Source: Octopus vulgaris (lineage: Eukaryota). Taken from it: a DNA stretch of 64,000 nt. Of this stretch, positions 2,670-57,089 are shown piece by piece (within the stretch, counting starts at the first letter, position 1; each line of letters starts with the position of its first letter). The notes below the pieces were generated by a model. The model ran no database searches. It saw nothing but the letters and a program-made list of their open reading frames with translations, and was not told where the DNA came from. Location: NCBI GenBank assembly GCA_951406725.2, contig OX597840.1, positions 35,464,001-35,528,000 of the forward strand. The letters are read 5' to 3'. The position numbers and the translations under genes were made by a program.

Positions 2670-2704
2670 GTTTCCGACGAAGAGCTCCGCTCGAAACGTT
2701 AAAC
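2670..2704 (+). ncRNA. Minimal hammerhead-like motif (core CCGACGA) in a ~210-bp element between (TA)n tracts
   Basis: gttt-CCGACGA-a-gagc-tcc-gctc-GAAA-cgtt-aaac: stem I gttt/aaac, stem II gagc/gctc, palindromic AACGTT in place of stem III. Confidence 0.6.
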
Positions 2705-3918
2705 CCTCCTTCTTTCCTTCTTTCCCGAGCGTCCAATAATACCATATTTGTTCCACGTCCTCTCGTTGTTGTGTTTTTATGTGCTTTCTTGTTTGGATTA
2801 ACTTTATATATATATATATATATATATATATATATACATATACACACACACACACACACACACACACACACACACATATATATATATATATATATATATA
2901 TATTTCATATTTTCATCTCCATCCATCCATCTATCTGTGATACACGATCCCTAATGATCGTTTTTTTCTCTTTTTTTCTTTCTTTTCTCTTTCTCTTTCT
3001 TTTTTCTTTCCTTTTTACGATCCCTTTTGATCGAAAACCTAACCCCATCATTTTTTTTCACCCCAAAAAGAAAAGCTCTACCTTGTAATTTGTCCCGTTT
3101 GTGTGCAGCCCTGTGTGGCTAATAAAGAAACATATCTATCTATCTATCTATCTATCTATCTATCTATCTATCTATCTATCTATCTATCTATCTATCTATC
3201 TATCTGTCTGTCTGTCTGTCTGTCTATCAAAATAAGCAACAAGGATATCCAGAGATAATGGATATCCTTGTTGCTTATTTTGATTTTAATCACCTTATTT
3301 TGAGATTGTATGGATAATACCATACTAAATTCTGGTGCCTTTAACTTAAGTACCATATTCATTCGAATCTAAATTTTTATTGAACTTATTTATCTATCTA
3401 TCTATCTGGCTTCCGGTCCCCTATAAAAACCATTTGGCGCATAGCTTAGAGCGCAGACGCCCAACAGACCACAAATCTCCTCAGAGATTTGCGCAAATGA
3501 CCGTGTATCTTTGCGTTGTCACGCAAATATCCTTCTATAATTTACAGAGCGGTTTTTCTCTCTCCCAGTCGACCATTATTAATATGGTCATCGTAAATAG
3601 TAAACACTCAATGTTTTTACGTCCGTCAATAAATATTTCAGTTTAATGTTCGCGACTTTGCATCAGTTATTATTCACGAAGTCAACGACGTAGATATTTA
3701 TTGATCAACGCAATTTGAGCGACAGCAACCACCAGAGACATTGGAGACCCTCGGCTTACGAAAAGGCCATGTCGCTGGGGGAAACTGCTGTCGTACGAAC
3801 TGCGTTGGTCAATGGAAACATATTTCGTTGGCTGCATAAATAATATCTGAGGTAAAGTCGCAAAAATTTGTCTGAAATATTTGTCTGAGTATAGGATATA
3901 TATAATGTATGTATATAT

Positions 3919-5268
3919 ATTTCTTTACTGCCCACAAGGGGCTAAACACAGAGGGGACAAACAAGGACAGACAAACGGATAAAGTCGATTATATCAACCC
4001 CAGTGCGTACGTAACTGGTACGTAATTTATCGACCCCCAAAGGATGAAAGGCAAAGTCGACCTCGGCGGAATTTGAACTCAGAACGTAGCGGCAGACGAA
4101 ATACCTATTTCTTTACTACCCACAAGGGGCTAAACACAGAGGGGACAAACAAGGACAGACAAACGGATTAAGTCGAATACATCGACCCCAGTGGGTAACT
4201 GGTACTTAATTTATCGACCCTGAAAGGATGAAAGGCAAAGTCGACCTCGGCGAAATTTGAACTCAGAACGTAACGGCAGACGAAATACCTATTTCTTTAC
4301 TGCCTACAAGGGGCTAAACACAGAGGGGACAAACAAGAACAAACAAACGGATTAAGTCTATTGAATCGACCCCAGTGCATAACTGGTACTTATATAATCG
4401 ACCCCAAGAGGATGAAAGCAAAGTTGGCCTCGGCGGAATTTGAACACAGAACTTAAAGACAGACGAAATACCTATTTCTTTACTATCCACAGAGGGGACA
4501 AACAAGGATAGAGAAACGGATTAAGTCGATTATATCGACCCCCAGTGCATAACTGGTACTTATTTAATAGACCCCGAAAGGATGAAAGCCAAAGTCGACC
4601 TCGGCGGAATTTGAACTCAGAACGTAACGGCAGACGAAATACCTATTTCTTTACTGCCCACAAGGGGCTAAACACAGAGGGGACAAACAAGGACAGACAA
4701 ACGGATTAAGTCGATTATATCGACCCCCAGTGCATAACTGGTACTTATTTAAAAGACCCCGAAAGGATGAAAGCCAAAGTCGACCTCGGCGGAATTTGAA
4801 CTCAGAACGTAACGGCAGACGATATACCTATTTCTTTACCACCCACAAGGGGCTAAACACAGAGGGGACAAACAAAGACAGACAAACGGATTAAGTCGAT
4901 TATATCGACCCCAGTGTGCAACTGGTACTTAATTTATCGACCCCAAAAGGATGAAAAGCAAAGTTGACCTCGGCGGAATTTGAACTCAGAACGTAACGGC
5001 AAACGAAATACCGCTCAGCATTTCGCCCGGCGTGCTAACGTTTCTTATTTCTTTATTGCTCACAAGGGGCTAAACACAGAGGGGACAAAGAAATTGAGTC
5101 GGTTACACCGACCCCAGTACGTAACTGGTACTTGATTTATCGACCCCGGAAGGATGACAGGCAAAGTCGACCTCGGCGGAATTTGAACTCAGAACGTAGC
5201 GGCAGACGAAATACGGTTACGCATTTCGTCCGACGTGCTAACGTTTCTGCCAGCTAGCCGCCTTCATG
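3919..5268 (-). mobile_element. Head-to-tail heptamer of tRNA-derived SINE family B (Meta-like central domain)
   Basis: Seven ~175-220-bp units; one full head (ggcggctagctggcagaaacg on the minus strand) at ~5262. 18-bp direct flank tataatgtatgtatatat at 3901-3918 and 5269-5286. Confidence 0.9.
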
Positions 5269-5982
5269 TATAATGTATGTATATATTCATCTACCTCGGT
5301 TTGAATGCGTGTGTGTGTGCGTGCGTGCGTGTGTGTGTGTGTGTGTGTGTGTGTGTGTGTGTGTGTGTGTGTGTGTGTGTCTTTGTGTTTGATTCTCTGC
5401 TTGTCTGATAGATAGATAGATAGATAGATAGATAGATAGATAGATAGATAGATAGATAGGTAGATAGATGTATTTTTATTGAACTTATCTATCTATCTAT
5501 CTATCTATCTATCTATCTATCTATCTGTCTGTGTGTCCTCCACTTAACAATTGTTGTTTTAGGTACTCAGATATGTCGGTTTGTGCACGCGCGTGTCTGT
5601 GTGAACGTGTGTGCATGCGTGCGTCCGTGCGTGCGTATGCGTGTGTGTGTGTGTGTTCGTGTGTGTGTGTTCGTGTGTGTCCGTGTGCGCACGCTTCTGT
5701 ACTTCGCTGTGATCGTGCGTCATAGCTCGGCGCCTGTCTCCTCCAGACTACAATCGCTGGTTGTTTTAGCGACTCAATTATCTCCGCAAAGGAATGACAG
5801 GCAATCCTCAAAGAAAGACAAAACAAAACAACAAAATAATAGACAATGAATAAAACAAAACAAAAAAATAAATAAAAGTAAAGCTGGAAAATTCTCCTCA
5901 ACCGAGATTCGATCCCAGATTGATGGATGTCAAATAATCCATCAATTCCCATCAACACTTTGTTCCTTTCTATCCTCGTCTC

Positions 5983-55648: not shown

Positions 55649-55759
55649 GTGTAGCTTATATACTAAAACGACTAATATTCGGATCTATCTTAATAAATGG
55701 CCAAATTAATAATCAAATCTTATTCTTTCTGTCATTTCTCTTTTGTCAATTCTCTTTTT

Positions 55760-56160
55760 CTCTTTTTACTTGTTTCAGTCATTTGACTGCGGCCTTGCTG
55801 GAGCGCCGCCTTTAGTCGAGCAAATCGACCCCGGGACTTATTCTTTGTAAGCCCGGTACTTATTCCATCGGTCTCTTTTGCCGAAACGCTAAGTGACGGG
55901 GACGTAAACACACTAGCATCGATTGTCAAGCGATGTTGGGGGGACAAACACAGACACACAAACACATACACACACAAATATATATATACATATATACGAC
56001 GGGCTTCTTTCAGTTTCCGTCTACCAAATCCACTCACAAGGCTTTGGTCAACCAGAGGCTATAGAAGAAGACACTTGCCCAAGGTGCCACGCAGTGGGAC
56101 TGAACCCGGAACCATGTGGTTGGTTAGCAAGCTACTTACCACACAGCCACTCCTGCGCCT
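55760..56160 (-). mobile_element. Full-length SINE family A
   Basis: Reverse complement of 21820-22240. Confidence 0.9.
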
Positions 56161-56729
56161 AGTTATTATAGTTATTATTATTATTATTATTATTATTATT
56201 ATTATTATTAATAATAATATTTGTCAGCCGGTGTTGGTCTGTTTACGTCCCCTTAACGTGGCCGTTCAGCAAAATTAAACCAATGAAATAAGTACCGGGC
56301 TTAGAAATATATATATAAAAAAAAAACGGAATAAATAGTTTATCCGACAAAACCACCTCCATTCATGATGTGTCCCAACATGGCCGCAGTCGAATGACTA
56401 AAATAAATAAAAATTAATAAAAATAAAAAGTGACCGGACAATAAAAGGCCCAAAACCAAACTCTGGAACCATCTTCCCAATCGGCATTCATTACTAAACT
56501 ACTTTCGACCATTATTAACTTACATTTCATTAAATTTCTATTCCCGTTATTCCCATTCAAATGCTTTCATTTTCCCAAATGGACGATTTCAACAAAGCAG
56601 ACGACCGCAAATATCACTGAACTTAACAACTCATCGCTTTTTCTTTCCTTGCTTTTTCTCAGTAATTTTTTGTTGCTTTTGTTTAGTTATTGATTTGTTT
56701 AGTTTTATTAATTAATTTATTTATTTCTA

Positions 56730-57089
56730 TATTTCGGAATGGTCATTTTGCCAGTTTAGCCAATAAAAACACACGCACTATATATTTGGTGTTACTTTGC
56801 TTCAGTGTTATTTATTTTTTACATTAATTTTAATCTTATTTCGGCCAGAGTTCTTTCGTCACACTCCTGTGACCGCATCAGTGGCTGACGGTTAGTAAGG
56901 AGAGACACAAATAAGAAAGAAGAAAACAAAGGACCACTGATGCGGTCACAGGAGTGTGACGAAAGAACTCTGGCCGAAATAAGATTAAGATTAATGTAAA
57001 AATCTAAATAACACTGAAGCAAAGTAGCACCAAATATATAGTGCGTGTGTTTTTATTGGCTAAACTGGCAAAATGACCATTCCGAAATA
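56730..57089. repeat. Fold-back: ~155-bp inverted arms, each carrying a hammerhead-like motif
   Basis: Arms 56730-56884 and 56934-57089, 49-bp spacer; cca-CTGATGC-g-gtcaca-ggag-tgtgac-GAAA-gaactc-tgg at 56934-56973. Confidence 0.9.

Follow-up and report, generated by a model that had tools for sequence, protein, structure and literature searches.

Most hammerhead motifs at an octopus locus are probably pseudo-LTR ribozymes of Penelope-like elements, several of them with altered cores

Why should 64 kb of an octopus genome hold some 15 hammerhead-ribozyme-like motifs? We analysed this stretch (hereafter the window; 64,000 nucleotides, C27:35464001-35528000 of the 2.80-Gb Octopus vulgaris genome, 4.7 Mb from the contig end), for which an initial annotation had listed about 15 motifs at 16 positions and assigned them to many unrelated, mainly non-autonomous elements. 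We conclude, with a probability of roughly 80%, that most of the motifs are hammerheads in the pseudo-long terminal repeats (pLTRs) of endonuclease-bearing (EN+) Penelope-like elements (PLEs) of the Neptune/Nematis type, left in short 5′-truncated insertions at (TA)n, that a minority belong to retrozymes, and that replication would run through slow, dimer-dependent cleavage. By site, six of the 16 are 3′ ends (pLTRs) of PLEs that bear an open reading frame (ORF), six share pLTR or insertion anatomy, three are retrozyme-like (units of about 340–360 bp, old) and one is unplaced (Table 1).

The link to intact elements was clearest in family C, which accounts for sites 31015, 50466 and 52529. The 30 best family C loci in the genome had one 3′ end in common, with (TA)n after it, and their 5′ ends were ragged; 51 of 62 copies stopped 90–119 nt past the cleavage site. 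Among six long loci, three that were full length or nearly so (L132, L134 and L136) carried two direct pLTRs, each with a hammerhead, and the other three had the 3′ copy only. The paired pLTR hammerheads (CUGUUGA) lay 4,573, 4,438 and 4,359 nt apart, with open frames of 1,119, 1,009 and 773 codons between them, respectively; the two pLTRs of L132 were 98.4% identical. The ORF, of about 970 amino acids, encodes a reverse transcriptase (RT), a zinc linker and, at its C terminus, an endonuclease of the GIY-YIG type. Pfam matched RVT_1 at 31.8 and 33.1 bits (cut-off 29.6) and GIY-YIG at 17 bits, under the cut-off of 22.6, with the motif visible, and the best 120 of 381 database protein matches were 41–57% identical. 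When the genome was searched with the protein of the GIY-YIG relic in the window, 20 of 29 other loci had, on the same strand, an A6U hammerhead 594–1,033 nt downstream. Insertions terminate roughly 100 nt downstream of the cleavage site; this spot reads UUAUAUAU in the full-length element and TTATATAT in the upstream pLTR of full-length elements, and the copies abut (TA)n. Related PLEs on metagenome contigs had the same architecture, with a canonical A6 hammerhead beside their ORFs. Because longer copies run into RT and GIY-YIG ORFs with pLTRs, the three family C islands are 5′-truncated copies of an autonomous PLE.

A second PLE lineage, family N, supplied the inverted pair at 56845 and 56934. 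Three longer copies led into an ORF end with a C-X4-C-X2-C linker, present in both PLE lineages, and a GIY-YIG-like YVGET motif; this ORF was seen as its 3′ part only and was 27–28% identical to the family C endonuclease. Since longer copies of families C and N run back into RT and GIY-YIG ORFs, the picture of a mainly non-autonomous population is not supported. The initial annotation was right that one motif (45081) follows a GIY-YIG ORF relic; the relic gave no Pfam match by itself, and the region around the motif matched the pLTR region of another genome locus at 63%. The linker and the anatomy point to the Neptune/Nematis type, an assignment made from these features, as the database homologues carry no clade names.

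Several other families share this insertion anatomy in whole or in part. Families A, C, F and N all showed 5′ truncation, inverted 5′ copies and a fixed 3′ end in (TA)n. The short non-coding islands beside (TA)n that had been described are real in their (TA)n 3′ ends, but the islands themselves are 5′-truncated insertions with a fixed 3′ end. Family F (2670) is about 70% identical to family C in the pLTR and differs in stem I by one C-G swapped for G-C; of 3,032 candidates from a genome search, the best 40 were 94–100% identical, and 19 of 23 copies stopped at (TA)n, 100–109 nt beyond the cleavage site. It is probably a PLE 3′ end and a sister of family C, its ORF link being drawn from this homology. 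Family A copies came with inverted partners and stopped at either of two 3′ ends, both at TA runs; walking upstream crossed 450 bp of AT-rich sequence in common without reaching an ORF. Relatives of family G were found at two loci, one with a canonical core, and inverted copies, tails and (TA)n ends at two more; family I had relatives with inverted copies at three loci. For family J, the best 40 of 3,393 candidates from a genome search were 83–100% identical; relatives at three loci stopped at (TA)n, and an RT fragment 300 nt upstream of one of them (L076) was not clearly part of the same element. Site 44043 had no second copy among the genome loci examined, and no examined copy of families A, F, G, I, J or 44043 reached an RT/GIY-YIG ORF in register; G, I and 44043 had no genome-wide search. 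The families called unrelated are diverse, but not all are separate: 2670 goes with the 50466 family, and 54330 is related to 37161 and 43761.

Several side features of these insertions were recorded. Families A, G, J and N each had two TA-rich 3′ ends roughly 60–130 nt apart (for example 32765-32868), which may reflect alternative priming sites rather than endonuclease-made tails. A family J tail fragment without a hammerhead lay in an inverted arrangement at 3294-3378(-). The 3′ end of another repeat family (26035-26290, also at three other loci) had PLE-like anatomy, with an inverted 5′ copy and a (TA)n end, and its truncation falls before any ribozyme. At least 20 distinct kinds of hammerhead occurred among the genome loci examined; ten of these loci carried many further families, with canonical cores, stem II loops of 25–70 nt and palindromic stems III of 6–8 nt.

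These features would fit the following cycle. In a read-through transcript with two hammerheads, the palindromic stems III (ACGU) would pair, and the resulting dimer would slowly self-cleave at both sites; the unit-length RNA would then be circularised by a host ligase. The element endonuclease would nick (TA)n DNA, and the nick would prime on an internal UA run. The template would run on through the ribozyme, either as a ligated circle, as PMC4209133 proposes, or as an uncleaved tandem transcript. Reverse transcription would cross the ribozyme junction first, which is why the shortest aborted copies would keep the whole hammerhead, and a more-than-full round would rebuild the upstream pLTR. 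The weak cores U4C, A6U and A9C would be tolerated because slow, dimer-dependent cleavage suffices.

The cores themselves were the unexpected feature. The 16 sites comprised four canonical CUGANGA cores, six U4C, three A6U, two A9C and one C3U. The core C[U/C]GANGA given earlier accordingly describes ten of the 16 sites and fails at 31015, 50466, 52529, 56845, 56934 and 54330. An extra base after A9, a G10.1-C11.1 pair and a palindromic stem III occurred together in families C and F, and the palindromic stem III also in families G and J and the family B consensus; family A and site 44043 had no extra base after A9, and their stem II opens with A-U. Position 6 of the family C core was U in 16,336 exact genome matches versus 622 with another base, mostly C among the first 100 of the latter listed. 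In family A, 91 of the first 100 matches listed had C4, and in family N, 95 of the first 100 listed had C9. The variant cores of families A, C and N are family states, not decay.

Constraint was assessed on 81 copies of family C that similarity searches had picked out. Four subfamily consensuses, 76–89% identical, differed at 2 of 38 hammerhead positions versus 45 of the 171 positions in the flanks (Fisher p=0.004). The two differing positions were N7, with all four bases, and H17, with U or A and never G in the 81 copies. The family C motif therewith stayed constrained after A6U arose, since all four subfamilies share U6. Canonical-core sister lineages exist in the same genome, and in 80 metagenome loci with related ORFs there were 19 same-strand hammerhead matches (1–5 per shuffled control). 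U6 is derived, because all 19 have A6.

An A6U core is expected to cripple the ribozyme. We put residual cleavage by the A6U hammerhead slightly on the probable side; for the A9C hammerhead, with its 3-bp stem I, it seems unlikely. For family C, the most abundant young PLE lineage, we tentatively propose, giving the idea somewhat less than even odds, that the A6U ribozyme (CUGUNGA) may be naturally active and catalytically required, released by dimer formation and possibly altered in its metal or protein dependence. If so, together with the parallel U4C and A9C lineages and the canonical sisters, PLEs would have been repeatedly selected for slow ribozymes, and core-strict searches would overlook most hammerheads in such genomes.

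The best-surviving alternative, a real possibility that we nevertheless doubt, accepts PLE ends but holds that the A6U or A9C motif no longer cleaves, being kept as a structural signal for RNA dimerisation or for recognition by the element RT/EN protein, or having died too recently to decay. A6 and A9 are conserved core positions, and A6C is reported to lower Mg2+ activity by orders of magnitude while Mn2+ activity is kept (PMC7151607). In the predicted structure, U6 can pair with A15.1, and this additional pair favours a monomer fold that is inactive; most family N copies have a stem I of only 3 bp, and Naiad PLEs are described as spreading without canonical hammerheads (PMC8557442). Against this stands the pattern of variation in family C, to which the argument is confined: the varying positions are exactly the ones on which the chemistry makes no demand, and H17 as U or A avoiding G follows a cleavage rule, not a binding rule.

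Several observations, that inactive fold among them, weigh against slow cleavage of PLE hammerheads as the explanation. The invariance of U6 is not significant by itself, as about 74% of flanking positions were also unchanged, and the 81 copies were not a random sample. In no monomer was the three-way junction the fold of minimum energy (z-scores +0.8 to -1.9), and energy folding of monomers and dimers did not recover the active junction. CUGA-turn mutants were weakly active in a saturation screen (PMC9901934), and eight of nine predicted Xenopus retrozyme dimers are reported to have failed to cleave (bioRxiv 10.64898/2026.07.22.740005). The ORF link of families A, F, G, I and J comes from anatomy or pLTR homology only, 44043 is unplaced, and an uncircularised tandem read-through template would give identical insertion anatomy. 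Neither cleavage nor a circle, a transcript end or an intron was seen, and none of the listed sequencing runs is recorded as RNA. The family C element matched assembled contigs from 23 listed runs. Contigs from four of the 23, placed on L132:2460-3700, showed neither molecule ends nor a credible intron joint; their depth at the hammerhead bin was about 40–1,500-fold over the ORF, which is no measure of copy number or expression. Only U was listed at core position 6, an observation we did not use since variation at N7 was likewise unlisted.

A second alternative, which we consider improbable, is that the motifs here are a sample from a large population of short ribozyme elements that are non-autonomous (retrozymes) and fall into many unrelated families. 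Two groups of sites do fit non-LTR retrozymes, old and non-autonomous: family B (37161 and 43761) and the 54330/54011 dimer, whose two motifs lie head to tail at 319 nt. Family B is a 357-bp non-coding unit with staggered starts and ends. Its copies often exceed one unit but are mostly about one unit long, and second motifs are decayed; three of 25 distinct loci outside the window held head-to-tail copies of 1.5–1.6 units, and copies there were 71–85% identical to the query. Perfect-core tandem retrozymes of 359 and 362 bp in two of 40 sampled genome stretches (L061 and L073), and the seven of 16 sites that have no proven ORF link, also favour this reading. Families C and N and site 45081, by contrast, connect to ORFs; as their copies extend into PLE ORFs, families C and N are not short units without an ORF. 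The fixed 3′ ends of families A, C, F and N likewise differ from the staggered ends of family B. The annotation's attribution to Penelope- and retrozyme-type hammerheads, diverse and abundant genome-wide, thereby stands, with 37161, 43761 and 54330 as its retrozyme-like part.

Covariation in family B was assessed on all 35 rows of its alignment. In total, 85.3% of cells were paired, and 18 both-side changes were seen versus 9.1±3.1 (0/500 shuffles), with a score of 1/500. Weaker measures gave 52/500 for pairs with a both-side change and 123/500 for extra pair types, and relatedness together with CpG decay in both halves of the palindromic stem III could yield the signal, so the covariation favours the stems only weakly. 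A cross-family alignment was left uncounted, its rows having been picked for pairing.

Elsewhere in the genome, L061:2300-4520 (359 bp) and L073:8660-9410 (362 bp) are young tandem retrozyme arrays with inverted blocks and a CAAUA loop II. The L061 core is a perfect CUGACGA and the L073 core is U3-A8. These arrays are the best candidates in this genome for active circular RNAs.

Host co-option to process or regulate a pre-mRNA, a third and very improbable alternative, arises from the setting of the motifs. The window contains a gene for a cholecystokinin-receptor-like G-protein-coupled receptor (GPCR), the middle exon of which had the cholecystokinin A receptor as its best solved match (E 1e-27); its first intron spans about 44 kb, and its last exon ends with long poly-Q and poly-D tracts. 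All listed sites except 2670 (15 of 16) lie in introns of this gene, six of them on the sense strand. The remaining nine are antisense, the copies show random decay, and each site belongs, as an ordinary copy, to a family whose members number from hundreds to tens of thousands.

Chance matches in low-complexity DNA, the weakest alternative, were refuted: although one match (43094) is due to chance and our looser descriptor was relaxed after the sites had been seen, that descriptor made 13 matches in the window (12 listed sites and 43094) versus 0.63±0.8 (maximum 3) in 100 shuffles, the exact pattern of the family C/F superfamily matched the genome 34,201 times versus 0 for the reversed control, and the motifs hold a fixed position downstream of PLE ORFs. 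Equal density in shuffled sequence, the outcome that would have counted against the motifs, was not what we found. A first type I descriptor, compared with 60 local dinucleotide shuffles of the window, had made ten matches (nine at listed sites and 43094) versus 0.53±0.69. Families A and N gave 1,434 and 3,321 exact genome matches, respectively, and 0 for each reversed control.

At each of the 16 listed coordinates begins, counting upwards, the order stem I-core-stem II-GAAA-stem III-NUH-stem I′ or a relic of it. The type I topology closed by stem I was recovered by descriptor at 12 sites and by inspection and relatives at three. These three (43684, 52946 and 56934) are clear family members that escape the looser descriptor because stem I has only 3 bp or stem II is mismatched at its base. 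The sixteenth, 45081, is decayed, with GGAG where GAAA is expected and stem I unclosed. The list of about 15 motifs at 16 positions was therefore sound at 15 sites, and it overlooked one motif (54011-54057 on the minus strand).

The Rfam check proposed for the motifs was run and returned no hammerhead, neither in the window at the gathering score nor in 43500-44300 at E<=10. In an E-value scan of the window, the best 150 of 587 rows were nearly all microsatellite-driven microRNA matches. The blank in the window carries no weight because the perfect-core tandem hammerheads of L061 were likewise unmatched.

To estimate density we sampled 40 stretches of 10 kb from this genome at round coordinates, mostly mid-contig. 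The looser descriptor made 28 matches, with about six expected by chance; two tandem arrays accounted for ten of the 28, and no match fell in 23 of the 40 stretches. This corresponds to one hammerhead per 18 kb in the sample versus one per 5 kb in the window, which is about 3–4 times denser. The earlier figure of one motif per 4 kb is right locally (4–5 kb) and overstates the genome mean about 3–4-fold. Decayed copies of window families added 19, three of them already counted, for about one motif per 10 kb. A rough extrapolation from these 400 kb gives 150,000–270,000 hammerhead motifs in the genome, a density that would rank with the highest on record. Of the superfamily matches, the first 100 listed fell within the first 4.66 Mb of contig C1, at about 21 per Mb versus a mean of 12, and contig ends look enriched in superfamily hammerheads.

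Apart from the hammerhead core variants, the window is ordinary intronic transposon debris. It has 38% GC and very abundant microsatellites, and a scan for tRNAs found none. A 184-bp repeat resembling a short interspersed element, often in head-to-tail arrays, occurs at 3918-5214, 13549-13920, 12093-12440, 39183-39529 and 61631-62034, and a 387-bp tandem repeat has about three units at 40314-41414 and a solo copy at 57492-57882; neither has a hammerhead match. Of three transposon relics at 35229-35777(+), 31960-32682(-) and 47477-48141(-), one is the C-terminal end of a long interspersed element with a weak zf-RVT match, and two are transposase-like fragments without Pfam support. These two we take to be Tc1/mariner-like.

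Table 1. Hammerhead motifs and related features, in positions of the window
Feature	Position	Strand	Remarks
Family F minimal hammerhead	2670..2704	+	Core CCGACGA (U4C), extra A9a, palindromic ACGU stem III; PLE 3′ end (probable)
Family A hammerhead	26345..26390	+	U4C, 8-bp stem I, 3-bp stems II and III
Family C minimal hammerhead, truncated PLE 3′ end	31015..31050	-	A6U core CUGUAGA
Family A hammerhead	32715..32764	+	U4C; longer 3′ tail
Family B type I hammerhead	37161..37209	-	U4C; within 413-bp terminally redundant copy of 357-bp retrozyme-like unit
Family G hammerhead	43684..43733	-	U4C here, long stem II, palindromic ACAGCUGU; directly after family B copy
Family B type I hammerhead	43761..43809	-	U4C; truncated retrozyme-like copy
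Hammerhead, stem II loop about 60 nt	44043..44138	+	Canonical core; found by descriptor
Decayed hammerhead relic	45078..45112	-	CUGACGA intact, GGAG for GAAA, stem I lost; about 570 nt after GIY-YIG relic
Frameshifted linker and GIY-YIG endonuclease relic of PLE	45680..46125	-	tblastn 50% and 42% identity to intact L132 ORF, E 2e-22
Family C minimal hammerhead	50466..50503	-	A6U core; truncated PLE 3′ end of about 190 bp stopping at (TA)n
Family I hammerhead	50717..50777	+	Canonical core, one bulged C before GAAA; inverted 5′-truncated copy upstream
Family C minimal hammerhead	52529..52564	+	A6U core
Family J hammerhead	52946..53033	-	Canonical core, long stem II, U.U at 10.1-11.1, palindromic ACGAUCGU
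Second, decayed hammerhead	54011..54057	-	UUGACAG, U3-A8 type; 319 nt after 54330 copy, head to tail
Type I hammerhead, first unit of B-related retrozyme-like dimer	54330..54376	-	Core UUGAUGA
Family N minimal hammerhead, inverted partner copy	56845..56884	-	A9C core CUGAUGC
Family N minimal hammerhead, 3′ end of second PLE lineage	56934..56973	+	A9C core
Cholecystokinin-receptor-like GPCR (seven-transmembrane) gene, three exons	within ORFs 8410-9168, 53462-53926, 57838-58890	+	Structure and protein matches

The literature searched held no paper on octopus hammerheads, which agrees with the population having been called uncatalogued; the pattern of solo minimal hammerheads was itself already known (PMC4209133). 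At the level of listings, the search found no A6U or A9C as the fixed state of multi-thousand-copy families, although supplements and larger variant surveys may hold some. About 150,000 PLE hammerhead variants were reportedly collected by Lunse et al. in 2017, and these may include A6U and A9C. A 2026 octopus repeat annotation gives 31 recently active Penelope-like families, with no ribozymes in its main text (PMC13282606). The dimer model of PLE hammerheads is reviewed in PMC6765202, retrozymes and their PLE origin are treated in PMC7229834 and bioRxiv 10.64898/2026.07.22.740005, and the function of hammerheads in PLEs has been called "still unclear" (PMC8557442).

The closest parallel is the minimal hammerhead of metazoan PLEs, as described by Cervera and de la Pena in 2014, who reported that truncated PLEs have left solo copies by the thousand in many animals, gastropod and bivalve examples among them, with 5′-truncated insertion as the usual state, opposite-strand pairs and low activity in vitro (PMC4209133). 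The octopus motifs share the type I topology, a stem I of 3–5 bp, the extra base between A9 and stem II, the G10.1-C11.1 pair, the palindromic stem III, a place in both pLTRs, the thousands of truncated solo copies and the opposite-strand pairs. They differ in the core: among the 44 rows examined of Fig. S3 of that paper, none has A6U, A9C or U4C, and all are CUGANGA or start with UUGA. Copy density is also higher: three patterns alone gave about 39,000 exact matches in 2.8 Gb here, whereas counts by a different method were about 9,000 for Xenopus and 4,000 for coelacanth (PMC4209133).

With the EN+ PLEs Neptune and Nematis (Craig et al. 2021, PMC8557442), the octopus elements share a single ORF with RT and then a C-terminal GIY-YIG, the CX2-5CXXC linker, pLTRs, 5′ truncation, inverted 5′ copies, 3′ tails and (TA)n targets, whereas family A tails add about 70 nt and end in TA runs, the tails described there being 30–40 bp. 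Like metazoan non-LTR retrozymes (PMC7229834), family B and 54330 have a non-coding unit of about 320–360 bp, a 6-bp stem I, a 4-bp stem II and a head-to-tail order, and L061 and L073 are textbook tandem arrays; the window copies, by contrast, are old (71–85% identity to other loci), form nothing longer than a dimer and carry U4C or U3 cores. Natural core variants are on record, with U4C in a viroid and U3-A8 (PMC3088659) and A6C in phage Bcep176 (PMC7151607); in these, single changes lower activity and function may persist.

The motifs are of a known kind, mostly PLE ends and partly retrozymes, and the unexpected part is the lineage-fixed, still-constrained A6U core. Descriptor or Rfam searches that require CUGANGA overlook the largest families here. 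In elements that are intact and were copied recently, the core has a change that is predicted to do damage although the motif is otherwise constrained, and canonical sisters exist in the same genome. The natural series A6, U6, C4 and C9 in one genome suits asking whether transposition needs cleavage.

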